Shown here piece by piece: positions 1 to 52,028 of a stretch of DNA of 64,000 nucleotides. The position numbers and the translations under genes are program-made. The DNA is taken from assembly GCF_000027125.1 (NCBI RefSeq), contig NC_017626.1; one strand, written 5' to 3'. This DNA comes from Escherichia coli 042 (lineage in GTDB: Bacteria; Pseudomonadota; Gammaproteobacteria; Enterobacterales; Enterobacteriaceae). Within the stretch, counting starts at the first letter, position 1. Each line of letters opens with the position of its first letter. The notes under the pieces are model-generated. The model made no database searches. It saw only the letters and a program-made list of their open reading frames with translations, and was not told the DNA's origin.

Positions 1-708
1 GCGCTGCAGCAATTGCTGGTTGAGGTTGTAACTGCGCACCAACATACCGATTTCATCATCCTGATGCAGACGCGGTAATGCCAGTTGGTGACCAACAAGC
101 TCCTGGGCTGGGATGGCGTTAAGTTCGCGAGCAATATTGCGTAAAGGATGTAAAATCAGTCGATTAATACACCAGCTGATGGCGACGGTCAGGATAAGCG
201 ACAAAAGTAAGTAAATGGTCACTAACGTTGAGAGGGTGCTCATCACGAACTTATACATGCGGAAGGAATCCGCCTGTAGCACCAGATAGGCAATTGGCTG
301 CGGGTTTGCCGGACGTTCCAGCGAGTAAACGCCCAGCGAGATTTGCACCGGTAGCTCAAACAGGCGAGTAACCATTACCGGCACCGGACGCTCTGGAATA
401 AAACTTTTACGCAGTGCCTGGAACTGGTTGGGCAGCACCACATCGGCACGGCTGACCACGCCTGCCGGTTTAATGCTGGCAAGAATAGCTTCCGCTTCGG
501 GAATATCGCCTTTCAAAATAGCTGAAGATAAGGGTTCGCGGACAGAGCGAGCAATGCTTTCCAGTTGCGTAGCCGTGTTATAGCGATTCTGCTGGACCAG
601 ATGGAACAGCAAAACGGTGCAAAAAATAAAAACGAACACCAGGACAACGGCTGCCACCATTGCCATCTGCTTGATTGTTAACGAGCGACTTACGCGCAAA
701 TTGTCTCC
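1..708 (-). CDS. pdeK: c-di-GMP phosphodiesterase PdeK (YhjK), N-terminal part; gene continues beyond window start
   Basis: Hand translation of minus strand from TTG at 706-708 (GGAGA 5 nt upstream) gives [19 protein letters not shown]..., recognised as YhjK N-terminus; in-frame stop upstream at 766-768; frame stays open to position 1. Not in ORF track because it runs off the edge. Alternative ATG start at 673-675. Confidence 0.75.
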
Positions 709-780: not shown

Positions 781-3700
781 TTACCAGTCGGCGTAAGGTA
801 TCAGCGGCTGCGGCGGTAAATCCATGTCACCCTGCCATCCGGCGGCGGAATAACGTACGTAGAGCAGGAAATGGCTGGGTGCGTAATCTTTCGCCTGCTG
901 GATATCAATTGCCGTGCCGACAAACCAGTTGGAAGTAACACGTCGTTCAAGTAATGCCCGCGCCGTGTAGCCAAAGCCCTGACTGCTGCCGCCATCGTTC
1001 GATTGCCGCGCAGCTTCTTCCTGCCAGTCGGTCGGGATCAGATTCATCAGCGGATAACGCGGCATGGTTTTGGTGCGTGAATGCGACCACGAGCCAGACG
1101 CCCCCAGCTCCCACGACCAGTTTTCCGTCCGCTCCCGCCACATCACCGGTATGGCAAACGACAGGTATTCCTGCGGGCTGTAGTAACCGCCCTGACCAAG
1201 TGAGTAGCCACTCAGGTCTTTGTCGTAATGCCAGATCATGTTGTTCAGGCCGATGGTGACGCGGCGATTGTTCTGGTTAATGACCTTATAGTAATAGCCC
1301 GTCATCCAGCGCACGCGCCAGTTATCTTCGACATTTTTACCGGTTAACTGATCACCGCTAAGCGATGCCCAGACGCCGTTTGCTTCACCTTTATCGTAGC
1401 TCAGGCTTAGCCCCACGCCGTCGGCACGCACGCCGCCCCATTTTTTCCCGGTATTGCTCGGGGAGTCTTTTTGCCCGCCAAAGGCCAGCAAAGAACTGGA
1501 GATGGGCCGACGATGGGCGTTAACGGTGTAACCCAGCGGCCCGATATCATCGCTGTAACTGATGCCGCCGACCACATCCACCACATTGAAGCCCATCGGC
1601 GTAGTGCCGATATCCCAGCTCCAGACGTCATTTCGCCAGCCGACCGCCACGCTGGCACCGGAATCCGACTGGCTGCGGTTGCCGCTACAGTCTTGTAATG
1701 TACAGGTGCCCCAGTTGTCATCCCATTTGCCATCGGCATTAGTGGAAAAACTGCCGACGTTCATATTGACGAAATCACTACGAAAGAACATCCGCCCGTC
1801 AGAATACGGCGCATCCACCTGCAACATAGTGGTGTGCGCTTTCAGATCGGAGTAACCACCGGTGCCGCTCGAACCCCAGTAATCGTGCTCGAGGGTGACA
1901 TTAAGATCCTGCTGACGATAGAGGTCCGCCGCATCGCTGCGCACGCCGCGTTTCAGCCAGTCATCTTTCTCGTCATTGCGGGTCAGTCGGGTAAAGGTGT
2001 CGTTATCCTGTGGACGCATCGTGGTCACACCGGATGCAACCATGGCGTCTTTGTAGGTTTCCAGCGCCTGCGTTGGATCGCCCGCCTGCGCTTCAAACTT
2101 CGCACCGTCGCGCAGTACCATCGCGCTTTCCATCGACGGCGGCTGAGATTTTGCCTGCGGGATCAACTTATTAAACGTCTGCTGCGCCGCTGCGGTATCG
2201 CCAAGCTGCGCCTGTGCCAGCGCCACGCGCCGCTGTGTGTTCAGCGAGGCGTTATCGGTAGCGGGCAGTTTCGCCAGCTGGCTACGTGCCGCCGCTTTGT
2301 CACCGGCAGCAATATCCACTTCCGTCAGACCAAGAATGGCATCGGCGTTAGTTGGCTCCCGCGTCAGGACATTCTGATATGCAGCGCGAGCGGCGGTGTA
2401 ATCACGTCGTTGTTGCGCCCAGTCAGCCAGCGTGAGGTCTATGCGCGTGGAAGGTGGTTGCTGGCGCAGCATCGCTTCCGCTTCAGCTTCTTTGCCGCTT
2501 TCTCGCAGGCGATTAGCGGTTTCCAGTACCTGATTGCTTTGCAGTCGATTAACCAGCTCCTGAATATTGCTGCTCCACTGCGCGCGCGGCAGGCTGTTGA
2601 TATGCGCCAGCGCCGCTCTGTCCTGGTCATGACCAGAGAGATACAGCCCGTAAGCGTAAACCTGCTCCGGGTCGTTCGGCTTCTGCTGCGCCAGATTACG
2701 CATTAACGTATCGGCCTGGCTGCGTTGTCCGGCCTGCCAGAGATCCTGCGAAAGTCGGTAAGTAATCCATACGCTGCCGGGGTCCAGCGCCAGTCGTTGC
2801 CGCTGAAGTGCTGCCGCCTGCGCCCATTTGCCCTGGTTTTCCAGTGCCTCTGCCTGCTGTGCCAGACGGTCGTTTTGCAGGCTGCGTTCGATATCATCAA
2901 TGCTTCGCCGCTGACTGGCAGAGAGCGAGGCGATAAACGCTTCAGCTTTTTCTGGCGATTGCTGGCGGTATATATTCGCCAGCCCGCGCACGGCGTTAGT
3001 GTTGCCGCTGTCCATACGCAAGGTCTGCTGATAATAACGTTCGGCGGCGGGATAATCTTTTCGCGCCATCGCCACATCGCCCAGCCCCAGCACTGCATAG
3101 CTGTCGGTGTTATCGACATTACGCGCCTGCTGGAACAGGCGTTCTGCCCGGTCAGGATTATTGGCTTTCAGCGCAGCATCGCCCTGCTGGATCGCCAGCC
3201 AGTAGCGGTTTACTTTCAGGAGACTGTTCCATTTGTCGTTGTTGCTGCTGTGCGGATCCAGGGCGAGGGCTTTTTCCAGATTCGCCACCGCATTGGCGCG
3301 ATCGCCTTTCTGAGAATACGCCTGGCCCAGCGCCCCCAGAGCCTCACTGTCTTTCGGGTTCGCCCGCACTGCCTGTTGTAGTTCGGGAATGGCTTTACCC
3401 GCCATACCAGAGTCCACCGCCGCTAAACCTTGCGCACGAGCGCGGAAAGCAGGGTCGGCCAGCTGTTTTTGCTGTTCTGCCAGTTGCGATTGCGCCGCAG
3501 CTACGCTATCGCCATCACTAAAGATCGAGAGATATTTTTTCAGCGCCGACACACTGGCATCGCTGACGGGCATGTCTTTAATCTGCCCGTACCAGATTTT
3601 AGAGGCCCCTTCGCGCCCGGCGTTTGATTTCGCCATCTGTTCCAGGACGGCAAAACCTTCGTCACGGCGATCGCTACTAAACAGCAATAGCGCCAGATTG

Positions 3701-4254
3701 TTTTGTAGGCCCGTATTGCCCGGCGTATCCGCATTAATGCGTTTTAGCTGATTAATCGCTTCGCCACGGCGAGCCGGAATTTTCGCCACCGTACTCCAGT
3801 ACTCGACGGCAATGTCACCTTCCGGCGGCGCACCGTTGAACAGTTTGTTGTAACTCGCCACAGCTTCTTCTGCATGACCGGTCGTCGCCTGCAATCTTGC
3901 CTGTTGCAGTGCCTGACGACCATCCGGCGTGGAAAGCAACATTGTGGTCCGCGACGATTTATACGCATTTGAACTCGGCGCTAACTGCGACAGCCGATCG
4001 AGCTGTTTTTGCGCGCCATCAATATCGCCCTGACGTAACAGAGAACGGAAACGGGCGGCAACGACGTCCGGGTTATTCGGATCAATAAGTTCCAGACGAT
4101 ACAACGACTGTTGCACCAGGTCTTCACGATGGGTCGCTTCGCCTAACCGAACTTGCTCCAGCAACTGTTGCTGAGCGGTTGGTGCTGCCTCGACCATCGG
4201 CATGACGGCCAGACCGAGAGAAAGCGTGAATATGTTTAGTGTGAATTTGCGCAT
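781..4254 (-). CDS. bcsC: cellulose synthase operon protein C (TPR repeats + outer-membrane beta-barrel), 1157 aa
   Basis: ORF track 781..4254; length and sequence (signal peptide, TPR-rich region, C-terminal barrel) match BcsC. Confidence 0.95.
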
Positions 4255-5342
4255 TCCTGGCCCCAGTCAGGTAATAACTCACCTTTTGTCGAGAAGCGGA
4301 AACGGTGTTGATCCCAGCCTTGTCCAAACAGGGTCAGCACATAGTTGTAATAGGCATCGCTGCCGGGAAAGTTATCGGCCACGCGCTGGCGCTGAACGGC
4401 CTGCGCATCGCGGTTTTGTAAAAAGGGCAGCATGGCGGCAGAAAAACCGACCGGTCCTTTACCCTGCGCTTTCCCCGTAGCCACATCCACTTTTTCTGGC
4501 GGATAGCCGTTTTTCTCGGTGAATGTCGCCATCGGTTTAAACCGGTTGAGCATCCGCGCTTTTTGCGGATCGCTGTCAGGCATCATGCCTACCCACATGT
4601 AAACGCGGATCGCGTCGTAGCTGCTGATCAATGTTTTTTCGGCTTTTAGCTGCCAGCCTTTGTCTTTCTCATAGCGCACCCAGTCTGGCGAAAAGCCTTT
4701 CGGGGCGGTTTCCAGCAATAAACGTTGATTGGTTTCGCGCAGCGTAGTCCACGGCGCGCCAAAGCGGGTGAAATACTGCGCCAGCGTCGGCGGCAGGTAG
4801 CTGGGGTTAAAACGCCAGCTGTTATCCTCAGCAAAACCCACTTTGCCCGGTAACAACATGGAACCCAGCCCAGGCACCGTCACCACTTCCTCCCGCGCGA
4901 TACGTTTTAACAACGCGCTGCCGATGTCGGTATAACGCTGCTCTTTCCACAAACGCCCCGCCTCCAGCAACGACCAGGCCATCCAGACATCACCATCGGA
5001 GGCCGAATTGCTGTCCAGCACTTCCCACTTACTGTTCTCTTTCTTGCCCCACAGCCAGGCAGGCAAACGTTCTTTTAAAGAACCCTGAGCGAGATTGTTC
5101 TGCGTCCAGTCGAGAATATTATCGAAAGCTGCACGGTCGTTAGCCGCCAGGGCAAAGAACATGCCGTAACTTTGCCCTTCGGAGGTGGTGATTTTGCGCG
5201 CGTCGCTGGGGTCGATGACGCGCCCTTCCTGACTGATGTAATCCTTTTTAAACTGCTCCCAGGCAGGCCAGGTACAGGCTGCCTGAACACTAAAGGCAGC
5301 CAGCAGCAGCATCGTCACGAGTCCACTACGCAACACATTCAT
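4236..5342 (-). CDS. bcsZ: endoglucanase BcsZ (GH8 cellulase), 368 aa
   Basis: ORF track 4236..5348; start placed at ATG 5340-5342 giving MNVLRSG... (track ORF begins 2 codons earlier at a TTG); 19-bp overlap with bcsC start. Confidence 0.9.
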
Positions 5343-5348
5343 CTTCAA

Positions 5349-7688
5349 TTACTCGTTATCCGGGTTAAGACGACGACGGCTGATAATACGCAGCAGACGC
5401 CACAGTACCCATGCCAGCAGCACGACGCTGATTGCCGCCAGCACCGCCAGCAGAATCGGATGGTTTGCCAGCGCATACCATAAGCGTTCGAACCACGGCA
5501 GATGGCCAACGTAATAGACGTCGCCAACGCGTAGGCTATTGATACCGGACTCGCGGATCACCGCGACCGAACCGAACATGGTGGCGCGTTTGCCGCTATC
5601 GTTCACCGCATCGTTAAGCATTTCATAACCGCGTGGGCTATCTGCCAGCAGCGCAATCACGCTGCGCTGGTCGTTATACGGCGACTGGAAGCCAATCACC
5701 GCCGCCATCGCACCGGAAGAGGTCAGCGTTGACTGGGTTTCTGCCGCGCGATCGCTCTCGTCCGGAACAATGCCGGGGAACGGGGTCTGGCGCATCGGCG
5801 TTTTCACCCAGCTTTCGGTCGCCTGCACCAACAGGTCGATCTGCTTGTCGTCTTTCAGTTTGTCCGGGATACCACCGATGATCATGATGTCGGCATCTTT
5901 GCCCTGAATGGTGCTGCCATCATCGGTCACCGTCAGATTAATCGCCGGGAAGCCCGTCTGTGCGCCGATAAAACCAACAGTATTCAGCAAGGTTTCCATC
6001 TGTGCTTCGTTAGGCGTTTTCGGCATCACGGTGATGGTTTGCGACAGATCCGCCATCCGGCTGAACGGGAAGCCCGCGTTAGCAAAGGCGCGTAGATCCG
6101 GCATCGGGATGAAGTGGTAATACTTCGAGAAGTCGATGGTGGAGTCGTCACCAATCACCACATGATTCTGCACCGGCTGGAAGGTAATACAGTTATCCAC
6201 CGAACCGCCAGGCATCGGGTTCATATACTCAAAGTCAAAGCGCAGCTGGTTGGTCGCGCCCAGTTTCAGCGCCGGAATAGAGACATCCGTTTTGCCATCC
6301 AGCAAACCTTGTAATACCGGAATCCGCAGCAGCAGGCGGTTCGCCTCCTGTTTGCTGCTCAGATTGAATGATTGCAGGAACTGGTTATTCAGGCTGATAT
6401 CCATCCGCGAACTGTCTTTCACCGGCGGCATGGTGTAGCGATAGTTGATATCCATATCAATGCCGGTACTACGCATCAAGTAGAGATCTGGCGGCAGGTT
6501 TAGCGAAACATTAATCGCTGCTGGCTCAAGACCGCTGGATTGCAACTGTTCTTCATAGGTTTTCAGTTCACCAAAGGTGACCGGACGATCGGTACGCACC
6601 CAGTTCGGCGCATCGTACGGCTTACGCGGTAGCAGCGGTTTCACTTCATTCACTACCACGCTTTCACCACGGAACAGAATGTTACCCTGAGCGATACCTT
6701 TCGCTGCCTGCAACAGGTCTTTGTCGTCACGACCAAACACCACCAGCAGTTTGACGTAAGGATTCTGCGGATGGTTGATCATCTCAATCACCGGGGCTTT
6801 TACCGCCGGATGATCGCGCAGGAAGTCCGGCCGTTTGTCGTTGGTTGCAAAGACAATGGCATTGCGATCCGGCAGTTGGTTATAGAGCACCGGGAAGTTC
6901 TGCCCACGCCAGCCAGAACGCGAACCAAACCACGAGGCAACAATGGCAGATGCTTGTTGCAGCCCAACATCCGGCGCACCCGCAAAGACCATCGGCAAGG
7001 TGTTAGTACGGTTATCACGCGGGTCAAAGAATGGTACCGGGAAGTGTGACAGGTCATTCTTCACATTCAGGGTCTGATAGGTCAAATCCAGTCCACTGCT
7101 CCGCCCAACATCCAGCCAAAGCGTGGTGCTGGCCGGGTTTTCGCACACGTCCTGATAATGGCCGACAAACTCCAGCCGCACACGGTTGAAATCAGTAATA
7201 AACAGCGGGTTAATGGGCATTTGTGCCAGCGTTTTTTTACCCAACTGTTCTTTGGTCACTGGCAGCACGCCCATCAGTTCATCATTGAGATAAACCTTTA
7301 ACTGCGACTGGACAGGCAGTAACGATGGCGATGGCGTGTATTCGAGATTGAGCATCGCCTTCGTCACCACTTCATCGCTGCGCATACCAAACTCAATGCT
7401 GCCGTTCGGGTTAATGCCACGTAGCACCATGCTGCCCGGCGGCGGCGCAATTTGCGCAAAGGTCAGCTTCACATCACGCGAAGGACCGTTCTGCGCCACG
7501 ACTGGCGCATCAGCGCCCTGCACGCCTGGCATCACTTGTCCCACCTGCGGATTTTGTTCCGTCTGGGCGGCTACAGCTGGCTCAGCATTGATCAGTGGTT
7601 GCGTTGCTGGCGTCGCCTGCGTCATGAAAGAGGGGAACGCACTCATCCCCATAGCCACTGCACAAATCCAGAATAGTTTTCTTTTCAT
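5349..7688 (-). CDS. bcsB: cellulose synthase regulatory/periplasmic subunit BcsB, 779 aa
   Basis: ORF track 5349..7775; start placed at ATG 7686-7688 (MKRKLFWICAVAMG..., signal peptide) rather than the upstream in-frame extension. Confidence 0.9.
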   Translation of the reverse strand: MKRKLFWICAVAMGMSAFPSFMTQATPATQPLINAEPAVAAQTEQNPQVGQVMPGVQGADAPVVAQNGPSRDVKLTFAQIAPPPGSMVLRGINPNGSIEFGMRSDEVVTKAMLNLEYTPSPSLLPVQSQLKVYLNDELMGVLPVTKEQLGKKTLAQMPINPLFITDFNRVRLEFVGHYQDVCENPASTTLWLDVGRSSGLDLTYQTLNVKNDLSHFPVPFFDPRDNRTNTLPMVFAGAPDVGLQQASAIVASWFGSRSGWRGQNFPVLYNQLPDRNAIVFATNDKRPDFLRDHPAVKAPVIEMINHPQNPYVKLLVVFGRDDKDLLQAAKGIAQGNILFRGESVVVNEVKPLLPRKPYDAPNWVRTDRPVTFGELKTYEEQLQSSGLEPAAINVSLNLPPDLYLMRSTGIDMDINYRYTMPPVKDSSRMDISLNNQFLQSFNLSSKQEANRLLLRIPVLQGLLDGKTDVSIPALKLGATNQLRFDFEYMNPMPGGSVDNCITFQPVQNHVVIGDDSTIDFSKYYHFIPMPDLRAFANAGFPFSRMADLSQTITVMPKTPNEAQMETLLNTVGFIGAQTGFPAINLTVTDDGSTIQGKDADIMIIGGIPDKLKDDKQIDLLVQATESWVKTPMRQTPFPGIVPDESDRAAETQSTLTSSGAMAAVIGFQSPYNDQRSVIALLADSPRGYEMLNDAVNDSGKRATMFGSVAVIRESGINSLRVGDVYYVGHLPWFERLWYALANHPILLAVLAAISVVLLAWVLWRLLRIISRRRLNPDNE

Positions 7689-7698
7689 CGCGTTATCA

Positions 7699-10317
7699 TC
7701 ATTGTTGAGCCAAAGCCTGATCCGATGGTTGTGCCGTTTCGCTCCGCTCCGGGCGGCGCGGAATAAACGATACAACCCAGGAAACCAGAGAAGTCAGCAC
7801 ACGGAATATGCCCTTCACCGAAGAAGGCGCAAACTCCGCCAGATGGCGGTAGCCACGGAAGCCGAGCTTCAGAATATCCAGCAGACTTTCCAGCGGCTTA
7901 TCTTCCGGGTAGCTGTCCTGCCAGAGCGCCCATGTATCCGCACGGGCAAACGTACACTGCACAAAATCGATATGTTGCTGGGTGGTGAGCGGCATTAATT
8001 TCAGCCCAACTTCATTACCCATCACGCGCGCCACCTGGGTGGGGAAGACGTATTCCTGCTGACCGCGTTTAAGCAACAGATTCACTTTCTGCCCTTCCAG
8101 AATCTGCGCCTGACCGTTGATCTTGATCCCCAAACCACCGTCGGAGAAATCCTGAACGGTACACGAGAAGAGGTGACCATCTTCGCGGGCAATTGCCGCG
8201 GGCATCGTCATCTCCACGCGGTGCGATCGGCGTACCTGTTTGCTTTCTACCGATACCGCAACTGCGCCGCCAAGAACAATCAGGTTGTAGAATACCCACA
8301 CCATACTGACGACCACGGTGAGCATCTCGGTTGGCGGGCCATAGAAGTAGCGCCAGATGCCTACCGCAACGCCCACCAGGTTGAGCAGAACAAGGAAGAT
8401 GTAGGGCCGCGAGATCACCCAGTCGACGTACTCTTCTTCCACCAGTCCACCTTTGGCGGTAACGTTAAATTTGCCTTTGTGCGGGTTAATCAGCGCCACC
8501 AGCGTCGGTGGTGCGATATACCACGCCAGCACCGTTTCGTAGATTTCACTCCAGAAAGAGTGGCGATATTTGCCCTGGATCTTCGAGTTGGTCAGGCTGG
8601 CATGAATCATATGCGGCAGCACGAACAGGGCGATCATCAACGCTGGCGCATAGATGATGTAGGCATGAAGCAGTAGGAACGCCAGCGGCGCAGTCAGGAA
8701 GATCAGCCGTGGAATGCCCGACAAGAAGTGGAACATGGCGTTGACGTAACATAGCCGCTGAGCAAACTTCAGCCCTTTACCGGTGAGCGGGTTATCGAGA
8801 CGGAAGATTTGCACCATCCCGCGCGCCCAGCGAATACGCTGACCGATATGCGCCGACAGACTTTCGGTCGCCAGCCCCGCCGCCTGCGGAATACGCATAT
8901 ACGCGGAGGTATAGCCACGACGGTGCAAACGCAGAGAAGTATGCGCATCTTCAGTCACGGTTTCGACAGCAATGCCGCCAATTTCATCCAGCGGCTTACG
9001 GCGAATCACCGCACAGGAACCGCAGAAGAAAGTGGCGTCCCACATATCGTTGCCATCCTGCACCAGACCATAGAACAGCGTGCCTTCGTTCGGTGTTTTA
9101 CGGAAACGTCCCAGGTTGCGTTCAAACGGGTCCGGTGAGAAGAAGTGGTGCGGCGTCTGCATCATCGCCAGTTGTTTTTCTTTCAGGAACCAGCCCATGG
9201 TCATTTGCAGGAACGATCGCGTTGGTACGTGGTCGCAGTCGAAAATCGACACGAACTCGCCTTTGGCATATTTCAGCGCATTGTTGATGTTGCCCGCTTT
9301 CGCATGTTCATGAGTGGTACGGGCGATATATTTCACCCCCACGTTTTGCGCAAACTGGCGAAACTCTTCCCTGCCGCCGTCATCAAGGATCCAGATGTTC
9401 AGCTTGTCTTTCGGCCAGTCGATACCCAGCGAGGCGTAAATGGTATTTTTCACCACGTTGAGATCTTCGTTGTAAGTCGGGACAAAGATATCCACCGACG
9501 GCCACAACGACATATCTTTCGGCAATGGCACCGGCTGACGATTCAGCGGCCATACTACCTGGAAGTAGCCGAGCACCAGCACAATCCACGCGTACGTTTC
9601 GGCGAACAGCAGAATAAGCCCGCACACCAGGCTGACCGGATCGTCCCAGTTCAGCGTAGAGGTGTAGCGCCACCAGATATAACGGCAAGAAACGGTCAGC
9701 GACAGCACAATCAACATTAGCGCCGAGAAGCGCCCCGGCATCCGCCGTACGATCAGCGCTACCCCCCACAGCAGCATCAGGAAGATAAACTGCGCCAGCG
9801 GGTTAAACGGCTGAGTAACGCAGATTAACGCCAGAATCAGCGAGAAGGTGACGATGATACCGAGGATCAACCGCCGCGCCCCGGCACTCAAATGGCCGAG
9901 CTCTTTTTTCTCATCAAGATGCTGTGTTTTATGGCTAACGCGCTCAGGCAGCTCGTTCATCCATTGATGGTAACGTCCACGAATATTTTGCAGACCTGAA
10001 AATGCCCGCCTGCGCGGTTTCGGCGTTTCTTTGCGCGATGCACCGATCAGTAACCAGCATGTTTGAATGAGATAACGGACCGGATCCAGCGGACGCGGAC
10101 GCGAGGCGTTGATATGCGGATACAGGTTTTTATGTTCTGCGCGAATACGCTGCCAGCGCGGGTGCTCCAGCGGAATAAAAATCCAGGCCAGGATCAACCA
10201 AAAACAGCCGAGCGTCGCGCTGAAAGCCGACGCGCCATGACGACGATAATCGCGATAACGCCCGATAAGCCGCGCGTTGACCGGCGGGATAAGCAACCAC
10301 CGGGTCAGGATACTCAT
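7699..10317 (-). CDS. bcsA: cellulose synthase catalytic subunit BcsA (GT2 + PilZ), 872 aa
   Basis: ORF track 7699..10317; 872 aa membrane glycosyltransferase with C-terminal PilZ-type region. Confidence 0.95.
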   Translation of the reverse strand: MSILTRWLLIPPVNARLIGRYRDYRRHGASAFSATLGCFWLILAWIFIPLEHPRWQRIRAEHKNLYPHINASRPRPLDPVRYLIQTCWLLIGASRKETPKPRRRAFSGLQNIRGRYHQWMNELPERVSHKTQHLDEKKELGHLSAGARRLILGIIVTFSLILALICVTQPFNPLAQFIFLMLLWGVALIVRRMPGRFSALMLIVLSLTVSCRYIWWRYTSTLNWDDPVSLVCGLILLFAETYAWIVLVLGYFQVVWPLNRQPVPLPKDMSLWPSVDIFVPTYNEDLNVVKNTIYASLGIDWPKDKLNIWILDDGGREEFRQFAQNVGVKYIARTTHEHAKAGNINNALKYAKGEFVSIFDCDHVPTRSFLQMTMGWFLKEKQLAMMQTPHHFFSPDPFERNLGRFRKTPNEGTLFYGLVQDGNDMWDATFFCGSCAVIRRKPLDEIGGIAVETVTEDAHTSLRLHRRGYTSAYMRIPQAAGLATESLSAHIGQRIRWARGMVQIFRLDNPLTGKGLKFAQRLCYVNAMFHFLSGIPRLIFLTAPLAFLLLHAYIIYAPALMIALFVLPHMIHASLTNSKIQGKYRHSFWSEIYETVLAWYIAPPTLVALINPHKGKFNVTAKGGLVEEEYVDWVISRPYIFLVLLNLVGVAVGIWRYFYGPPTEMLTVVVSMVWVFYNLIVLGGAVAVSVESKQVRRSHRVEMTMPAAIAREDGHLFSCTVQDFSDGGLGIKINGQAQILEGQKVNLLLKRGQQEYVFPTQVARVMGNEVGLKLMPLTTQQHIDFVQCTFARADTWALWQDSYPEDKPLESLLDILKLGFRGYRHLAEFAPSSVKGIFRVLTSLVSWVVSFIPRRPERSETAQPSDQALAQQ

Positions 10318-11066
10318 GATTTACTCCCGACTGGCGTTTTCAGCCCGGAATAGTTCAACAGGCACCAGTTAGCCAGCGTCAGTATCTCTTCAGCGGCCAG
10401 CGCATCACTGCGATATTCACCGACTGGTTGCTTAGCCGCCAGGCATTCAGCCATCGCTTCATCACGATGAATGAGCATTGGCAGTAATCGGCGCTGGCTT
10501 TGCAACCAAAGCTGGTAAATATCGTCCTGAACTTGACTGCCGATACGGAAGTCATTAATCAAAATATGCGCGCCATCCGGCAGCGCCTGCTGATGCAGCC
10601 GGATATGGCAGTTGGCATCCACATTGACGATTGCCAGCGAGTGATCGCACAAACTCAGCAGCTGGTGGGTTATCTGCGAGGAATCACGCGGTAAGTCGAT
10701 TAAAATCCACTGGTAACGCCCGCTGGCTTTTAGTTGCTGTAAGCCGGAGCAAATATCGCTCAGCCGGGTTTGCCAGTGCTGTGGATTTTCTTGTTCTTCA
10801 ATGGATAACTGACCAAAAGGCAGCAAATCGAGCTGCGAGGTATAGCGCAACCCGGCGTCACGCCAGTCCTGGTCATCCAGCATAGCTCTGGCCCAGCCCT
10901 GACGGTGGGTAAAATCAACGTTAAATGACAGGCGCAACAAGTTGTCCGGGCAGGCATCGACCACCAGGACATTTTCTCCCAACATTTGTAATGACCAGGC
11001 TAATGCGGCGGTGATGGTTGTTGTCCCCACGCCTCCCCGCACCCCCTGCAATCCCAGTACGGCCAT
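10314..11066 (-). CDS. bcsQ: BcsQ (YhjQ), ParA/MinD-family ATPase of the cellulose secretion system, 250 aa, intact reading frame
   Basis: ORF track 10314..11066; translation MAVLGLQGVRGGVGTTTIT...; codon 6 is TTG (Leu) by hand translation, so the ORF is uninterrupted; ATGA overlap with bcsA start. Confidence 0.9.
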   Translation of the reverse strand: MAVLGLQGVRGGVGTTTITAALAWSLQMLGENVLVVDACPDNLLRLSFNVDFTHRQGWARAMLDDQDWRDAGLRYTSQLDLLPFGQLSIEEQENPQHWQTRLSDICSGLQQLKASGRYQWILIDLPRDSSQITHQLLSLCDHSLAIVNVDANCHIRLHQQALPDGAHILINDFRIGSQVQDDIYQLWLQSQRRLLPMLIHRDEAMAECLAAKQPVGEYRSDALAAEEILTLANWCLLNYSGLKTPVGSKS

Positions 11067-11077
11067 TCACCAATCCC

Positions 11078-11266
11078 CTACTTTTGTTGCGCAAACTCTG
11101 CCAGCAACGGCCAGCGTTTTAATGCCGCGGCCAACTGTTCGCGTTGGGAAATATCGGCATAATCAATATCAGGCAGTGAAAATGCCTGCTTTAACGCCAA
11201 AATATCATTCTGGAAGATATAGCCTATCGCGGGATCAGGCAGAGTATCTGGTTCATTGTTATTCAT
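11078..11266 (-). CDS. bcsR: BcsR (YhjR), small cellulose-biosynthesis protein, 62 aa
   Basis: ORF track 11078..11308; start placed at ATG 11264-11266 giving MNNNEPDTLPDPAIGYIF... Confidence 0.8.
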   Translation of the reverse strand: MNNNEPDTLPDPAIGYIFQNDILALKQAFSLPDIDYADISQREQLAAALKRWPLLAEFAQQK

Positions 11267-11537
11267 TTGCTTGATCCCTATGAAATAACCGTACCGTTCA
11301 TGAGACAATTCTAACCGTGAGCATTTCGCCGGTTTATTGTTTACGGCGAGACGGGAATTTGCTCACTTTTTGACTTTCCGTTACGCAACAAAAAAAGTTA
11401 AAAACGAAAAGACTAAAATCACACGTCTTGTGACCTGCTAAATTGATTCACATGCTAAATCTGATAAGTTTTAATTTCAATGGTAGGTTTATTTCTTAGC
11501 TTTCGCTAGTAAACTGATAATCAGACAAAATGATGAC

Positions 11538-13109
11538 ATGAGGGACATTGTGGACCCTGTATTCTCTATCGGTATCTCATCATTATGGGATGAGCTGCGA
11601 CATATGCCAGCAGGCGGCGTCTGGTGGTTTAACGTCGATCGCCATGAAGATGCTATCAGTCTGGCGAATCAAACAATTGCATCCCAGGCTGAAACCGCAC
11701 ACGTCGCGGTCATTAGCATGGACAGCGATCCGGCGAAAATCTTTCAATTAGATGATTCTCAAGGACCGGAAAAAATAAAATTATTTTCAATGCTAAATCA
11801 TGAAAAAGGTCTATACTATTTGGCCCGTGATTTGCAGTGTTCTATTGATCCCCATAATTACCTTTTTATTCTTGTTTGCGCAAATAACGCATGGCAAAAC
11901 ATTCCTGCCGAGCGGCTTCGCTCATGGTTGGATAAAATGAATAAATGGAGCAGGTTAAACCATTGTTCGCTTTTGGTAATTAATCCCGGAAATAATAACG
12001 ATAAACAATTTTCATTGTTGCTTGAGGAATACCGTTCACTTTTTGGTCTTGCCAGTTTGCGTTTTCAGGGCGACCAACATTTGCTGGATATTGCCTTCTG
12101 GTGCAACGAAAAAGGGGTTAGCGCCCGTCAGCAGCTTAGCGTTCAGCAACAAAATGGTATCTGGACATTAGTTCAAAGCGAAGAGGCGGAGATCCAACCA
12201 CGCAGCGACGAAAAACGCATTCTGAGTAATGTTGCTGTACTGGAAGGTGCGCCGCCGCTATCAGAACACTGGCAACTGTTCAACAATAACGAAGTCCTGT
12301 TCAATGAAGCCCGTACCGCTCAGGCGGCGACGGTGGTCTTTTCTTTACAACAAAATGCGCAAATCGAGCCACTGGCCCGCAGCATTCATACTCTGCGTCG
12401 CCAGCGCGGTAGTGCGATGAAAATCCTCGTACGGGAAAATACCGCTAGCCTGCGCGCCACCGATGAACGTTTGTTATTGGCCTGCGGTGCAAATATGGTT
12501 ATCCCATGGAATGCCCCACTCTCCCGCTGTCTGACGATGATCGAAAGCGTGCAAGGGCAGAAGTTTAGTCGCTATGTGCCGGAAGATATCACTACCTTGC
12601 TGTCAATGACCCAGCCGCTCAAACTGCGTGGTTTCCAGAAGTGGGATGTGTTCTGTAATGCCGTCAACAACATGATGAATAACCCTCTATTACCTGCCCA
12701 CGGTAAAGGCGTTCTGGTTGCCCTACGTCCGGTACCGGGTATCCGCGTTGAGCAAGCCCTGACGCTGTGTCGCCCTAACCGCACCGGCGATATCATGACT
12801 ATTGGCGGTAATCGGCTGGTGCTGTTTCTCTCATTCTGTCGGATTAACGATCTGGATACCGCGTTGAATCATATTTTCCCATTGCCGACTGGCGACATTT
12901 TCTCAAACCGTATGGTCTGGTTTGAAGATGATCAAATCAGTGCCGAGCTGGTGCAGATGCGCCTGCTTGCCCCAGAACAATGGGGCATGCCGCTGCCTTT
13001 AACGCAAAATTCTAAACCGGTCATTAATGCCGAGCACGATGGTCGCCACTGGCGACGAATACCAGAACCAATGCGACTGTTAGATGATGCTGTGGAGCGC
13101 TCATCATGA
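11538..13109 (+). CDS. bcsE: BcsE (YhjS), c-di-GMP-binding cellulose secretion regulator, 523 aa
   Basis: ORF track 11538..13109, divergent from bcsRQABZC. Confidence 0.9.
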
Positions 13110-13297
13110 TGACCATCAGCGATATCATTGAAATTATTGTCGTTTGCGCACTGATATTTTTCCCGCTGGGCTATCTGGCGCGGCACTCTTTGCGACGCAT
13201 TCGCGACACCTTACGTTTGTTCTTTGCTAAACCTCGTTATGTTAAACCGGCCGGGACGTTACGCCGCACGGAAAAAGCCAGGGCAACCAAAAAATGA
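13106..13297 (+). CDS. bcsF: BcsF (YhjT), small membrane protein, 63 aa
   Basis: ORF track 13106..13297; ATGA overlap with bcsE stop; hydrophobic N-terminus. Confidence 0.85.
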
Positions 13298-14973
13298 CTC
13301 AATTTACGCAAAATACCGCCATGCCTTCTTCCCTCTGGCAATACTGGCGCGGCCTTTCCGGCTGGAACTTCTATTTTCTGGTTAAGTTCGGCCTGTTGTG
13401 GGCGGGATATCTTAACTTCCATCCGCTCCTCAATCTGGTGTTTGCCGCGTTTCTGCTGATGCCCATTCCGCGCTACAGCCTGCATCGCTTACGCCACTGG
13501 ATTGCCCTGCCGATCGGCTTTGCTTTGTTCTGGCATGACACCTGGTTGCCTGGCCCGGAAAGCATAATGAGCCAGGGTTCGCAGGTGGCGGGGTTCAGTA
13601 CCGATTATTTAATCGACCTTGTCACACGCTTTATTAACTGGCAGATGATTGGGGCCATTTTTGTTTTATTAGTGGCCTGGTTATTCCTGTCACAATGGAT
13701 TCGCATTACCGTTTTTGTGGTTGCCATTCTGCTATGGCTGAACGTACTTACCCTGGCGGGACCAAGTTTCTCCTTGTGGCCAGCCGGTCAACCGACGACC
13801 ACTGTAACAACGACGGGTGGCAACGCAGCGGCAACCGTTGCGGCGACGGGTGGCGCACCGGTAGTGGGTGATATGCCCGCACAAACTGCACCGCCAACAA
13901 CGGCGAACCTTAACGCCTGGCTGAATAATTTCTATAACGCGGAGGCGAAACGTAAATCGACCTTCCCGTCTTCGCTGCCCGCTGATGCTCAACCATTTGA
14001 ACTACTGGTGATTAATATCTGTTCGCTTTCCTGGTCGGATATTGAAGCCGCCGGGTTGATGTCGCATCCGCTGTGGTCGCATTTCGATATTGAGTTCAAG
14101 AACTTTAACTCCGCCACCTCCTACAGTGGCCCGGCGGCGATCCGTTTACTGCGCGCCAGCTGCGGGCAGACTTCGCACACTAATCTGTATCAACCGGCAA
14201 ATAATGACTGCTATCTGTTTGATAACCTGTCGAAACTGGGCTTTACCCAGCACCTGATGATGGGACATAACGGCCAGTTCGGCGGTTTTTTGAAAGAAGT
14301 TCGCGAAAATGGCGGCATGCAGACCGAATTGATGGATCAAACAAATCTGCCGATTATTTTGCTGGGCTTTGATGGTTCGCCGGTTTATGACGATACCGCC
14401 GTGCTTAACCGCTGGCTGGACGTTACCGAAAAAGATAAAAACAGCCGTAGTGCCACGTTCTACAACACGCTTCCACTGCATGACGGCAACCATTATCCGG
14501 GCGTCAGCAAAACAGCGGATTACAAAGCGCGGGCGCAGAAATTCTTTGATGAACTGGACGCCTTCTTTACTGAACTGGAGAAATCGGGTCGTAAAGTGAT
14601 GGTGGTCGTGGTGCCGGAACACGGCGGCGCGCTGAAGGGCGACAGAATGCAGGTATCTGGCCTACGTGATATCCCTAGCCCGTCTATCACAGACGTCCCC
14701 GTTGGGGTGAAATTCTTCGGCATGAAGGCACCACATCAGGGGGCACCGATTGTCATCGACCAACCGAGCAGCTTCCTGGCTATCTCCGATCTGGTGGTTC
14801 GCGTTCTTGATGGCAAGATTTTCTCCGAAGACAATGTTGACTGGAAAAAACTCACCAGTGGGTTGCCACAAACAGCACCGGTCTCCGAGAACTCAAATGC
14901 AGTAGTTATTCAATACCAGGATAAACCGTACGTTCGCCTGAACGGCGGCGACTGGGTGCCTTACCCGCAATAA
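13294..14973 (+). CDS. bcsG: BcsG (YhjU), membrane phosphoethanolamine transferase for pEtN-cellulose, 559 aa
   Basis: ORF track 13294..14973; N-terminal TM segments, central Thr/Ala/Pro-rich linker, C-terminal sulfatase-like domain. Confidence 0.95.
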
Positions 14974-14978
14974 GAACG

Positions 14979-15010
14979 AAAAAGGCCGCAGAGTTTCACC
15001 CCTGCGGCCT
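14979..15010 (-). terminator. rho-independent terminator hairpin of first ldr copy (also downstream of bcsG)
   Basis: Inverted repeat ggccgcag...ctgcggcc followed on the minus strand by a T-run; same element repeats in every LDR unit. Confidence 0.5.
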
Positions 15011-15059
15011 GATCCGGGCGCAAATTGCCATTACGGCAGCCTGACGCCCGCATGACACG

Positions 15060-15167
15060 TTACTTCCGCTTATTCAGCGAGTTCACGATCAGACTGGCAA
15101 GAATGCCAGCAATGACCGGAGCCGCTAAATCATGCCAGAAGGCCATGCCCAGTTCTGCGAGCGTCAT
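15060..15167 (-). CDS. ldrD: Ldr type I toxin peptide, copy 1 (35 aa: MTLAELGMAFWHDLAAPVIAGILASLIVNSLNKRK)
   Basis: C-terminal 35 codons of ORF 15060..15302; ATG at 15165-15167; matches LdrD family small hydrophobic toxin. Confidence 0.85.
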   Translation of the reverse strand: MTLAELGMAFWHDLAAPVIAGILASLIVNSLNKRK

Positions 15168-15215
15168 ATAGCCGCCTCTGTTGTAATGACAACGTTTCGC
15201 GGCTATTCTTGAGTT

Positions 15216-15282
15216 GTTTGGGTTCAAGATTAGCCCCCGTGATGTTGTCAGGTGCATACCTGCAACGTGCGGGGGTTTTCTC
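15216..15282 (+). ncRNA. rdlD: Rdl antisense RNA (antitoxin), copy 1; coordinates approximate
   Basis: Plus-strand candidate promoter ttgtaa-N17-tattct at 15181-15209, transcript ending at hairpin cccccgt...acgtgcgggggttttct (~15271-15282); antisense to the ldr mRNA leader. Confidence 0.4.
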
Positions 15283-15542
15283 TCTCCAGCAACCAATGCC
15301 ACCAGGGATTAAGCCCCCGCAACATTGCGCCTCACCGGAACCCTTCCGGCTTGCCGCTGATTCTACGGCCATTTTTGTTCGTCGAAATCCATCACTTCTT
15401 CACTCTGTGCTGCGCATTCCGCAGAATATTATCCGCTTGCAGCCGTTGCATTTTTCTTACGAAAAAGGCCGCAGAGTTTCACCTCTGCGGCCTGGTCCGG
15501 GCGCAAATTGCCATTACGGCAGCCTGACGCCCGTCTGACACG

Positions 15543-15650
15543 TTACTTCCGCTTATTCAGCCAGTTCACGATCATGCTGGCAAGAATGCCAGCAATGACC
15601 GGAGCCGCTAAATCATGCCAGAAGGCCATGCCCAGCTCTGCGAGCGTCAT
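15543..15650 (-). CDS. ldrD: Ldr type I toxin peptide, copy 2 (35 aa, ...AGILASMIVNWLNKRK)
   Basis: Hand translation; ATG at 15648-15650, stop 15543-15545; absent from ORF track because the extended ORF is under 60 aa. Confidence 0.8.
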   Translation of the reverse strand: MTLAELGMAFWHDLAAPVIAGILASMIVNWLNKRK

Positions 15651-15698
15651 ATAGCCGCCAGTGTTGTAATGACAACGTTTCGCGGCTATTCTTGAGTT

Positions 15699-15765
15699 GT
15701 GTAGGTTCAAGAATGGCCCCCGTCATATTGTCAGGTGAATACCTGCAACGTGCGGGGGTTTTCTC
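15699..15765 (+). ncRNA. rdlD: Rdl antisense RNA, copy 2; placed by 483-bp periodicity
   Basis: Same offset from ldr stop as copy 1; homologous sequence with the same terminator hairpin. Confidence 0.35.
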
Positions 15766-16025
15766 TCTCCAGCAACCAATGCCACCAGGGATTAAGCCCC
15801 CGCAACATTGCGCCTCACCGGAACCCTTCCGGCTTGCCGCTGATTCTACGACTGTTTTTCTGTTCCGAAATCCATCACTTCTTCACTCTGTGCTGCGCAT
15901 TCCGCAGAATATTATCCGCTTGCAGCCGTTGCATTTTTCTTACGAAAAAGGCCGCAGAGTTTTATCCCTGCGGCCTGATCCGGGCGCAAATTGCCATTAC
16001 GGCAGCCTGACGCCCGTCTGACACG

Positions 16026-16133
16026 TTACTTCTGCTTGTTCAGCCAGTTCACGATCATGCTGGCAAGAATGCCAGCAATGACCGGAGCCGCTAAATCGTG
16101 CCAGAAGGCCATGCCCAGCTCTGCGAGCGTCAT
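16026..16133 (-). CDS. ldrD: Ldr type I toxin peptide, copy 3 (35 aa, ...MIVNWLNKQK)
   Basis: C-terminal 35 codons of ORF 16026..16268. Confidence 0.85.
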   Translation of the reverse strand: MTLAELGMAFWHDLAAPVIAGILASMIVNWLNKQK

Positions 16134-16181
16134 ATAGCCGCCTCTGTTGTAATGACAACGTTTCGCGGCTATTCTTGAGTT

Positions 16182-16248
16182 GTGTAGGTTCAAGAATGGC
16201 CCCCGTGATGTTGTCAGGTGCATACCTGCAACGTGCGGGGGTTTTCTC
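16182..16248 (+). ncRNA. rdlD: Rdl antisense RNA, copy 3; placed by periodicity
   Basis: Same offset as copy 1. Confidence 0.35.
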
Positions 16249-16508
16249 TCTCCAGCAACCAATGCCACCAGGGATTAAGCCCCCGCAACATTGCGCCTCA
16301 CCGGAACCCTTCCGGCTTGCCGCTGATTCTACGACTGTTTTTCTGTTCCGAAATCCATCACTTCTTCACTCTGTGCTGCGCATTCCGCAGAATATTATCC
16401 GCTTGCAGCCGTTGCATTTTTCTTACGAAAAAGGCCGCAGAGTTTCACCTCTGCGGCCTGGTCCGGGCGCAAATTGCCATTACGGCAGCCTGACGCCCGT
16501 CTGACACG

Positions 16509-16616
16509 TTACTTCCGCTTGTTCAGCCAGTTCACGATCATGCTGGCAAGAATGCCAGCAATGACCGGAGCCGCTAAATCATGCCAGAAGGCCATGCCCA
16601 GTTCTGCGAGCGTCAT
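16509..16616 (-). CDS. ldrD: Ldr type I toxin peptide, copy 4 (35 aa, ...MIVNWLNKRK)
   Basis: C-terminal 35 codons of ORF 16509..16751. Confidence 0.85.
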   Translation of the reverse strand: MTLAELGMAFWHDLAAPVIAGILASMIVNWLNKRK

Positions 16617-16664
16617 ATAGCCGCCTGAGTTGTAATGACAACGTTTCGCGGCTATTCTTGAATG

Positions 16665-16731
16665 GTCTAGATGCAAGAATGGCCCCCGTGGTGTTGTCAG
16701 GTGCATACCTGCAACGTGCGGGGGTTTTCTC
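16665..16731 (+). ncRNA. rdlD: Rdl antisense RNA, copy 4; placed by periodicity
   Basis: Same offset as copy 1. Confidence 0.35.
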
Positions 16732-16991
16732 TCTCCAGCAACCAATGCCACCAGGGATTAAGCCCCCGCAACATTGCGCCTCACCGGAACCCTTCCGGCT
16801 TGCCGCTGATTCTACGGCCATTTTTGTTCGTCGAAATCCATCACTTCTTCACTCTGTGCTGCGCATTCCGCAGAATATTATCCGCTTGCAGCCGTTGCAT
16901 TTTTCTTACGAAAAAGGCCGCAGAGTTTTATCCCTGCGGCCTGATCCGGGCGCAAATTGCCATTACGGCAGCCTGACGCCCGTCTGACACG

Positions 16992-17099
16992 TTACTTCTG
17001 CTTGTTCAGCCAGTTCACGATCATGCTGGCAAGAATGCCAGCAATGACCGGAGCCGCTAAATCGTGCCAGAAGGCCATGCCCAGCTCTGCGAGCGTCAT
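16992..17099 (-). CDS. ldrD: Ldr type I toxin peptide, copy 5 (35 aa, ...MIVNWLNKQK)
   Basis: C-terminal 35 codons of ORF 16992..17267. Confidence 0.85.
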   Translation of the reverse strand: MTLAELGMAFWHDLAAPVIAGILASMIVNWLNKQK

Positions 17100-17147
17100 A
17101 TAGCCGCCTCTGTTGTAATGACAACGTTTCGCGGCTATTCTTGAGTT

Positions 17148-17214
17148 GTGTAGGTTCAAGAATGGCCCCCGTGATGTTGTCAGGTGCATACCTGCAACGT
17201 GCGGGGGTTTTCTC
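17148..17214 (+). ncRNA. rdlD: Rdl antisense RNA, copy 5; placed by periodicity
   Basis: Same offset as copy 1. Confidence 0.35.
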
Positions 17215-17574
17215 TCTCCAGCAACCAATGCCACCAGGGATAAAGCCCCCGCAACATTGCGCCTCACCGGAACCTTTCCGGCTTGCCGCTGATTCTACGA
17301 TTGCTTTTTACCGTCAGCACCCGGCAATCTTCCTCATTGCGCGATGCCTTCCAGCTTAATTTCTTTATTTGCAATAGTTGCAGTTCATATCCGGGCTGAC
17401 TCCAGACTGGTAGTGAAATGCGCAATTTTGTAGAATTGCGCCTCCTCGCGACCTCCCCAGTGAATCTGTTGCCTCATTTTTTACATACTGCGTATTCGAC
17501 TTCTCCACCTGTTGCGCAAGAGAAACTGGGTTTATTCATTTTTGCGAGGCCGACTTCTTTCTGGACAGGACTTT

Positions 17575-25356: not shown

Positions 25357-25794
25357 TATCAGGCCTACGTCGAATCGAACCTCCCTGCCCCCGGAAGTTC
25401 TCATCCTCTTCAGGCCGCAGAAAGCAAAAAACCAGCCCGTAGGCTGGTTTTTCTAAATTGGTCGGTGATAGAGGATTACTCGCCACTTCGTGGCTCGCCC
25501 TGCGGGCCGTTGCTGGCGCAACGTTCTCTCGCTTCGCTCGAGTCGAATCTCCCTGCCCCCGGAGGTTCTCATCCTCATAGGCTACAAATGCAAAAAAGCC
25601 TGCTCGCTGAGCAGGCTTTTCGAATTTGGTCGGTGCCAGAGGATTACTCGCCACTTCGTGGCTCGCCCTGCGGGCCGTTGCTGGCGCAACGTTCTCTCGC
25701 TTCGCTCGAGTCGAACCTCCCTGCCCCCGGAGGTTCTCATCCTCATGGGCTACAAATGCAAAAAAGCCTGCTCGCTGAGCAGGCTTTTCGAATT
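25357..25794. repeat. tandem degenerate repeats (~92 + 166 + 168 bp) downstream of proK, each with a terminator-like hairpin, a T-arm-like GGTTCGA motif and a copy of the last ~19 nt of tRNA-Pro
   Basis: tggtcggtg(a/c)(t/c)agaggatt occurs at ~25449, ~25617 and 25795 (the last is the real tRNA 3' end); the intervening sequence is about 97-98% identical between the two full units. Confidence 0.8.
25762..25790 (-). terminator. rho-independent terminator just downstream of proK
   Basis: Minus-strand gcctgctcagcgagcaggc followed by a T-run (tttttt), 5 bp after the tRNA 3' end. Confidence 0.6.
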
Positions 25795-25871
<77 letters not shown>

Positions 25872-37627: not shown

Positions 37628-37780
37628 TTACTCTTTCAATTTGCAGGCTAAAAACGCCGCCAGCTCATAACTCTCCTGTTTAATATGCAATTCACACAGT
37701 GAATCTCTTATCATCCAGGTGAAAAATAAAAGCGTGAAACAAATCACTATTAAAGAAAGTAATCTATATTTCTGCGGCAT
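37628..37780 (-). CDS. hokA: HokA type I toxin (Hok/Gef family), 50 aa, intact
   Basis: C-terminal 50 codons of ORF 37628..37840: MPQKYRLLSLIVICFTLLFFTWMIRDSLCELHIKQESYELAAFLACKLKE. Confidence 0.85.
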   Translation of the reverse strand: MPQKYRLLSLIVICFTLLFFTWMIRDSLCELHIKQESYELAAFLACKLKE

Positions 37781-37840
37781 TCCCAGCCCCCTGTGTTGAT
37801 TTCCAACGAGTAAGAGGCTAACCTTATGGTGTCTATGCAT
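37628..37840 (-). CDS. mokA: MokA, overlapping reading frame that translationally couples hokA, 70 aa
   Basis: ORF track 37628..37840, co-terminal with hokA as in hok/mok/sok loci. Confidence 0.6.
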   Translation of the reverse strand: MHRHHKVSLLLVGNQHRGLGMPQKYRLLSLIVICFTLLFFTWMIRDSLCELHIKQESYELAAFLACKLKE

Positions 37841-37886
37841 AGAGGGGCCTCACTTTGATTTATAGTCAGGTGGGGCTTTTCTCTGT
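37822..37886 (+). ncRNA. sokA: putative SokA antisense RNA (antitoxin); coordinates approximate
   Basis: Plus-strand region antisense to the mokA start/leader, ending at hairpin gcctcac...gtggggc followed by ttttctct. Confidence 0.3.
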
Positions 37887-38060
37887 CTGCCTTTCGGTGA
37901 ATACCTGAGACAAACAGTCTCAAGCACCCGCAGCTATTCTAGCTTAATAAGTTCGTTTCTTCTCCTTGATATAATCCTAAAAAAATCTCATAAAATTAAT
38001 ATATGAGACAATCTTTATTCAGCAGAAGATTATTAAAGGTTGCTCTATTATTTAGCGATA

Positions 38061-51940: not shown

Positions 51941-51991
51941 CGATGATGAGAATTGTCGGCGTCACATCAGGTAACCCAGCACAACCACCTG

Positions 51992-52028
51992 ATACGAGCA
52001 AAAGCCTTATCCGACTGACAAGTCGGAT
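51992..52028. terminator. palindromic hairpin between convergent xylR and bax (probable bidirectional terminator)
   Basis: gccttatccgactgacaagtcggataaggc, a perfect 13-bp inverted repeat with a 4-nt loop. Confidence 0.4.

Follow-up and report, generated by a model that had tools for sequence, protein, structure and literature searches.

A full-length set of bcs genes with an uninterrupted bcsQ in Escherichia coli 042

The divergent bcs operons

The window analysed here, a stretch of 64,000 nucleotides from the Escherichia coli 042 chromosome (NCBI RefSeq assembly GCF_000027125.1, contig NC_017626.1), is colinear with positions 3684920-3748302 of E. coli K-12 and carries nine bcs genes in a divergent layout (Table 1). 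The minus-strand genes of the bcsRQABZC operon occupy positions 781-11266 and the plus-strand genes of the bcsEFG operon positions 11538-14973, with a 271-base gap between them. All nine genes have the lengths of their K-12 counterparts, contain no internal stop codons and are 97.3-100% identical to them in DNA sequence. The nine proteins score above the curated NCBIfam cut-offs, eight of them over approximately the whole model and BcsR over a 42-residue core model, and at the level of sequence the family assignments are unambiguous. The core of a type II (E. coli-like) system, bcsA, bcsB, bcsZ and bcsC, is present at full length, and BcsE and BcsG, the subunits that distinguish type II Bcs systems (PMC8892547), as well as BcsR, BcsQ and BcsF, are all recognized above cut-off (NF011619, TIGR03368, NF040717, NF007460 and TIGR03493, respectively). 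Thus, the original prediction that every gene of bcsRQABZC and bcsEFG is full length is borne out by both the reference lengths and the family-model matches, and the disruption of bcsA, bcsB, bcsC or bcsG that it allowed might have been overlooked was sought in the reading frames and model alignments and was not found there.

Table 1. Features of the bcs locus, in window coordinates.
Feature	Position	Strand	Description
pdeK (hmsP in the NCBI pipeline annotation)	1..699	-	N-terminal 233 of 662 codons in the window
bcsC	781..4254	-	TPR-containing outer-membrane channel, 1157 aa, intact
bcsZ	4236..5342	-	Periplasmic endoglucanase, 368 aa, intact
bcsB	5349..7688	-	Periplasmic synthase subunit, 779 aa, intact
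bcsA	7699..10317	-	Catalytic cellulose synthase with PilZ domain, 872 aa, intact
bcsQ	10314..11066	-	MinD/SIMIBI-type ATPase of the cellulose machinery, 250 aa, intact
bcsQ codon 6	11049..11051	-	TTG (Leu), CAA on the plus strand; TAG in K-12
bcsR (yhjR)	11078..11266	-	62 aa, intact
bcsR-bcsE divergent intergenic (promoter) region	11267..11537		271 bases
bcsE	11538..13109	+	c-di-GMP-binding protein, 523 aa, intact
bcsF	13106..13297	+	63 aa, intact; TIGR03493 match 116.4 bits
bcsG	13294..14973	+	Phosphoethanolamine transferase, 559 aa, intact

Divergence of the individual products from K-12 is slight. BcsA differs by a single substitution, M41L, matches NF008558 over residues 1-872 (1793 bits) and retains DCD at 360, FFCGS at 430, TED at 455, QRIRW at 493, RRSHR at 696 and DFSDGG at 723, which correspond to the motifs of the glycosyltransferase and to the RxxxR and D/NxSxxG motifs by which PilZ domains bind c-di-GMP. 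Seven substitutions each were found in BcsB (NF008325, 1387.6 bits, residues 1-779) and in BcsC, which is of K-12 length, free of stops and aligned to NF008520 over residues 1-1157 of 1157 (2201 bits). BcsZ carries two (NF008305, 595.5 bits) and keeps E55 and D243; BcsE likewise carries two (NF011619, 1189.9 bits, residues 1-523) and keeps RTGD at 415. BcsR has one, V23L, is identical to its counterpart in strain UTI89 and matches all 42 positions of NF040717 with residues 20-61 (75.8 bits), and the bcsF DNA is identical to that of K-12. The five substitutions in BcsG (TIGR03368, 817 bits) are conservative and spare Ser278, the catalytic nucleophile (PMC11379886). Public contigs with the exact sequence number from approximately 955 to more than 1000 for each Bcs protein, for instance 955 for BcsC and at least 1000 each for BcsZ, BcsB, BcsQ and BcsE.

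The adjacency of pdeK, also put forward in the original prediction, stands in part: a colinear pdeK does lie beside bcsC, although only codons 1-233 of 662 fall within the window. Since the gene is cut by the left window edge, the reading concerns these codons and not the integrity of the whole gene, EAL domain included; they are colinear with K-12 b3529, start with the same TTG and contain no stop and one substitution, K199Q. Strain 300444 has the gene annotated in the corresponding position.

Codon 6 of bcsQ

The bcsQ gene is an open frame of 250 codons, from ATG to TGA, of which the sense strand begins ATG GCC GTA CTG GGA TTG CAG. In K-12 MG1655, the homologous start reads ATG GCC GTA CTG GGA TAG, and the gene (b3534, of the same position and length in MG1655 and W3110 and 97.5% identical in DNA to bcsQ of the window) is annotated as a pseudogene in RefSeq. 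Accordingly, alignment with the K-12 allele, the check proposed with the original prediction, confirms that codon 6 is TTG in the window where MG1655 and W3110 have TAG; the K-12-type null allele, a change of Leu6 to stop, is not the one carried here. The link between this stop and the cellulose-negative phenotype of K-12 also holds, as repair of the TAG at bcsQ codon 6 to TTG in W3110, which yielded strain AR3110, made the strain cellulose-proficient (PMC7397504; PMC5944007).

That bcsQ is intact, as had been claimed, is supported by the open frame and by a full-length match to the BcsQ equivalog NF007460 (538.6 bits, E = 1.9e-162, residues 1-249 of 250). The protein is also approximately 99% identical, over 250 of 250 residues, to BcsQ in the solved BcsRQ and BcsERQ structures (PDB 6YBU, 6YAR, 6YB3, 6YBB, 9FNN and others; E = 1.4e-167 for 6YBU), from which it differs by three substitutions, G65D, A129S and N172D. 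The idea that the frame is a chance one, or an artefact of a wrongly chosen strand or phase, can hardly be entertained in the face of this E value and structural identity, to which the synteny with K-12, UTI89 and strain 300444 can be added; we consider it refuted. The deviant Walker A motif GVRGGVGTTT (residues 8-17) is retained together with C39, N152, R156 and N171; this motif and the ATP-sandwich residues N152, R156 and N171 have been defined, along with the function of BcsRQ and its essential residues, in earlier work (PMC8892547).

The distribution of the two alleles shows which of them is unusual. Of the 5246 complete genomes matched by the 56 bases around codon 6, 3568 have the TTG version exactly; because queries of this length were seeded outside the polymorphism and matched nearly all genomes, only the band at 100% identity is informative. 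By contrast, a 41-mer centred on the polymorphism, so that every 28-base seed contains it, retrieved the TAG allele from 349 of the 5426 complete genomes of E. coli. Sixty of these 349 were sampled at even spacing, and every one resembles a K-12 derivative in its name, its O16:H48 serotype or its size of 4.5-4.7 Mb; a few natural carriers may be present among the 289 genomes outside the sample. A few of the sampled TAG genomes bear host labels, namely mouse gut, chicken and coffee plant. Truncated bcsQ has been reported in isolates of the ST10 complex, in a table that is given without the position of the truncation (PMC10881479); we considered whether this might be the K-12 allele circulating in nature and set the idea aside, given the K-12-like appearance of all sampled TAG genomes. 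Taken together, it is the TAG of K-12 that is exceptional, and TTG (Leu) is the ancestral, wild-type codon. An intact bcsQ is, consequently, plain wild type and not a distinguishing feature of this strain.

Variation relative to other strains

A close known counterpart is provided by strain AR3110, which produces curli and phosphoethanolamine (pEtN)-cellulose (PMC7397504) and shares with the window the nine genes, their order and lengths and the TTG at codon 6. The two differ by 0-7 substitutions per protein, as measured against the K-12 alleles that form the AR3110 background, by DNA identity of 97.3-100% and by one base fewer ahead of the bcsR start in the window; downstream of bcsG, the window has five Ldr/RdlD units and K-12 only one. 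The locus of UTI89 also has the gene order and lengths of the window, with identical BcsR and BcsF, and differs by 2-15 substitutions in each of the other Bcs proteins, by several intergenic substitutions and by having three Ldr units beside bcsG rather than five. UTI89 is reportedly the strain in which Thongsomboon and co-workers first characterized pEtN-cellulose in 2018. None of the complete RefSeq genomes compared is an exact match to the window; the nearest, that of strain 300444, shows 13 differences over the first 15 kb and lacks one of the Ldr units.

Several substitutions in the window are found in neither K-12 nor UTI89: G65D, A129S and A249K in BcsQ (K249 is also found in the crystallized protein, PDB 6YBU), N561S, D574N and T746M in BcsC, I756V in BcsB, M41L in BcsA, S491N in BcsE, and S344T and V354I in BcsG. 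These are common alleles. The bcsR-bcsE intergenic region differs from that of K-12 by three substitutions and by the lack of one T beside the bcsR ATG, which makes it 271 bases long rather than the 272 of K-12 and UTI89 and leaves 8 bases, instead of 9, between the ATG and the likely ribosome-binding site (AGGGA). Among the 5426 complete genomes, 674 have the shorter leader; one of them is IAI39, a match that hints at a placement of the strain on the phylogroup D/F side of the species.

These differences raise the question of whether a missense change or the shortened bcsR spacer disables the machinery despite the open frames, as the authors of PMC5944007 have suggested, with regard to missense changes, for strains BL21 and H10407. 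We regard such concealed loss of function as very improbable, because no substitution falls at a residue known or cited as functional, every exact protein occurs on hundreds to thousands of contigs and the short spacer recurs in the 674 genomes. Such a spread would be unexpected for a recent private defect, though a lineage-wide defect would spread too.

Predicted function and expected phenotype

The gene set allows the following pathway to be proposed, in which the individual steps are taken from published work. BcsA, together with BcsB, would polymerize UDP-glucose upon binding of c-di-GMP to the PilZ domain, and BcsR and BcsQ, in a complex with bound ATP, would assemble a cytosolic vestibule around BcsA together with BcsE and BcsF. 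BcsG would transfer phosphoethanolamine from phosphatidylethanolamine to the nascent glucan via Ser278, and BcsZ and BcsC would act in the periplasm and at the outer membrane. Given a readable bcsQ, the stop codon of which overlaps the start of bcsA as ATGA, the block of the K-12 type is presumably absent here, whether that block stems from missing BcsQ or from a polar effect on bcsA. The locus should then be competent for pEtN-cellulose, given functional regulators encoded outside the window. Hence, we conclude that this is very probably a canonical wild-type type II cellulose secretion locus, free of the K-12-type block and capable of supporting pEtN-cellulose production if the outside regulatory inputs work.

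Whether these inputs do work is a separate matter. The CsgD input named in the original prediction is not required by all strains: a CsgD-independent cellulose pathway is reported for strain 1094, in work by Da Re and Ghigo (2006) cited in PMC5944007. More generally, cellulose synthase needs a specific cyclase, DgcC, under the control of the RpoS/MlrA/CsgD cascade (PMC7397504), and none of csgD, mlrA, rpoS and dgcC lies within the window. All bcs genes of BL21 and H10407 are free of nonsense mutations, and yet both strains are calcofluor-negative (PMC5944007), so that the phenotype is not deducible from the locus. It is accordingly possible, if on the unlikely side, that the locus is intact but silent, with RpoS, MlrA, CsgD, DgcC or another cyclase defective or differently wired and PdeK acting as a local sink. 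No sign of a regulatory defect was seen within the window, however, and, in the bcsR-bcsE intergenic region, the variants checked among the four positions that differ from K-12 are common to many natural genomes. Silence of this kind would affect only the predicted phenotype and does not contradict the genotype call.

A broader version of the same concern is that the lineage as a whole is cellulose-negative or differently regulated, through lineage variants (BcsQ G65D and A129S, BcsC T746M and others, or the short bcsR leader in 674 genomes) or through regulator defects outside the window. We consider this rather unlikely; if true, phenotype could be predicted only poorly from an intact bcs locus across a whole branch of E. 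coli.

The preferred reading remains that of a wild-type locus, the state of which is ordinary and already well described: the chromosome is wild type at a locus where it is the laboratory lineage of K-12 that deviates, which in itself matters little and opens no new question. Nevertheless, in many E. coli sequence types the bcs genes are often inactivated by mutation, and such losses have been associated with higher invasiveness (PMC10881479). With all nine frames open, the strain therefore belongs to the cellulose-capable genotype class, an assignment that is of some practical use.

Codon 6 of bcsQ and its distribution in E. coli

In the ORF list of the window, bcsQ is an ATG-initiated frame of 250 codons, the sense strand of which begins ATG GCC GTA CTG GGA TTG, placing TTG at codon 6 (11049–11051, where the plus strand reads CAA); the translated N-terminus is MAVLGLQGVRGGVGTTT. 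Residues 1–249 of 250 match NF007460, the NCBIfam equivalog model for BcsQ (538.6 bits against a cut-off of 399, E = 1.9e-162), and the whole 250-residue protein is ~99% identical to the E. coli BcsQ of solved structures such as 6YBU and 6YAR. Frame, translation, family match and structural homologue uphold the original observation of an intact bcsQ with TTG at codon 6, the last two ruling out a chance ORF. BcsQ also keeps the deviant Walker A motif GVRGGVGTTT, C39, N152, R156 and N171, residues required for ATP binding and cellulose secretion (PMC8892547).

By contrast, bcsQ of K-12 MG1655 (b3534; segment compared, 3682000–3708000) begins ATG GCC GTA CTG GGA TAG and is a pseudogene in the RefSeq annotation. 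The premature stop at codon 6 that was originally cited is thus borne out by the MG1655 sequence and by two papers (PMC7397504 and PMC5944007). The latter gives the change as 17 T>A and considers that the stop may act on BcsQ directly or through polarity on adjacent genes. Of 5426 complete E. coli genomes, 349 contain a match to a 41-base query with the K-12 TAG at its centre, in which every 28-base seed necessarily spans the SNP. Sixty of these, sampled at even spacing, were without exception K-12 laboratory strains and derivatives, as judged from name, O16:H48 serotype or genome size. Of the 5246 genomes matched by the TTG 56-mer of the window, 3568 carry it exactly and most others differ at one other base; bcsQ is found at ≥80% coverage in 5247/5426 genomes. 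Taken together, these counts identify TTG as the ancestral, majority state and K-12 as the exception; an intact bcsQ is not unusual.

Integrity of the nine-gene cellulose locus

Cellulose genes of E. coli 042 in window coordinates
Gene	Coordinates	Strand	Product (aa)
bcsC	781–4254	−	1157
bcsZ	4236–5342	−	368
bcsB	5349–7688	−	779
bcsA	7699–10317	−	872
bcsQ	10314–11066	−	250
bcsR	11078–11266	−	62
bcsE	11538–13109	+	523
bcsF	13106–13297	+	63
bcsG	13294–14973	+	559

As had been noted, bcsRQABZC and bcsEFG are full length: base-for-base comparison with K-12 revealed identical gene lengths, correct initiation and termination codons and frames free of internal stops, with 97.3–100% DNA identity and 0–7 substitutions per protein. 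All nine products score above the curated NCBIfam cut-offs, eight across essentially the whole model, and residues 20–61 of BcsR cover all 42 positions of the BcsR core model. The adjacency of pdeK to the locus, though not the integrity of its EAL domain, was likewise confirmed; only codons 1–233 of 662 fall within the window (1–699, minus strand). The bcsQ stop and bcsA start overlap as ATGA, an arrangement that would fit translational coupling of the two genes.

Functional residues remain in place in BcsA (DCD 360, FFCGS 430, TED 455, QRIRW 493 and the PilZ motifs RRSHR 696 and DFSDGG 723), BcsZ (E55 and D243) and BcsE (RTGD 415). The motif definitions for these three proteins, and for additional BcsG residues, follow general background on the families. 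BcsG keeps Ser278, its catalytic nucleophile (PMC11379886).

Variation among relatives and elsewhere in the window

Every one of the nine exact Bcs proteins occurs in the public collection, with contig counts running from 955 for BcsC up to at least 1000. Compared with UTI89, the Bcs proteins show 0–15 substitutions. Among complete genomes, the closest is that of strain 300444 (stool, Mozambique), in which all nine bcs genes are annotated as intact; it differs from the first 15 kb of the window at 13 bases, 12 of them within bcsE. The bcsE differences cluster at 11613–12911, cause three amino-acid changes and look like a short recombination patch; the BcsE allele of the window is itself common (at least 1000 contigs).

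The one structural oddity within the locus is the bcsR leader (11266/11267), where the spacer from the probable ribosome-binding site to the ATG is one T shorter than in K-12 and UTI89 (8 bases versus 9). IAI39 and other complete genomes, 674 of 5426 in all, share the shorter leader, which makes it a lineage polymorphism. In the blood isolate E. coli GN02461 (NZ_CP095533.1, 301–1095), bcsQ is 100% identical to the window over aligned bases and carries a 42-base in-frame tandem duplication, absent from the window, which repeats residues 150–163 (DANCHIRLHQQALP), including the ATP-contacting N152 and R156; the 264-aa product is still annotated as intact BcsQ.

Directly downstream of bcsG lies an ldr/rdlD array (14976–17309), in which a 483-base unit is repeated 4.8 times in tandem (95% matches). 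Its minus strand encodes five intact ldr toxin ORFs of 35 codons each (15060, 15543, 16026, 16509 and 16992), and its plus strand gives five matches to the Rfam rdlD antitoxin RNA. Sampled complete genomes carry one to five units here; the number is one in K-12, three in UTI89, four in strain 300444 and five in the window. The hokA/sok locus (37778–37929 and surroundings) is uninterrupted, with an Rfam sok match over the full length (120 bits) and HokA identical to that of K-12, whereas K-12 has an IS150 insertion at this site (3720633–3722075). Two adjacent minus-strand RtT-family repeats (25459–25592 and 25627–25762) adjoin a tRNA (25798–25871); the window is ~168 bases longer than K-12 at these repeats (25459–25871), consistent with one extra repeat unit. 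Between xylR and bax (51975–52000), the K-12 alignment breaks, with ~25 bases versus ~113 in K-12 (3736192–3736305), probably reflecting a small intergenic repeat element in K-12 only.

Implications for cellulose production

The mechanism combines open frames, family membership and catalytic and ligand-binding residues from this analysis with protein roles from the E. coli literature. BcsA and BcsB polymerise glucose once c-di-GMP binds the PilZ domain, DgcC and PdeK, both docked on BcsB, being the local source and sink of c-di-GMP, respectively (PMC7397504). BcsR and BcsQ form a mutually stabilising, ATP-bound heterotetramer that binds BcsE and, with membrane recruitment via BcsF, forms a vestibule surrounding the PilZ domain (PMC8892547), and BcsG transfers phosphoethanolamine via Ser278 (PMC11379886). 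Given a readable bcsQ, we infer that the K-12 type block is absent and that the locus is competent. Neither csgD, mlrA, rpoS nor dgcC lies within the window, which is colinear with K-12 3684920–3748302; these genes are encoded elsewhere in the genome.

An intact bcs locus does not guarantee a cellulose phenotype, since BL21 and H10407 are calcofluor-negative despite having no nonsense mutations; calcofluor fluorescence was detected in only one of six phylogroup A strains, 1094 (PMC5944007). Loss-of-function bcs mutations are commonplace in nature: they affect 55.3% of 613 ST95 genomes, and 74 of the 76 common sequence types include at least some strains that carry them (PMC10881479). A fully open nine-gene locus is therefore informative rather than remarkable. 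The finding is real and was correctly interpreted; what it describes is a well-studied locus in its usual wild-type form, which is already known.
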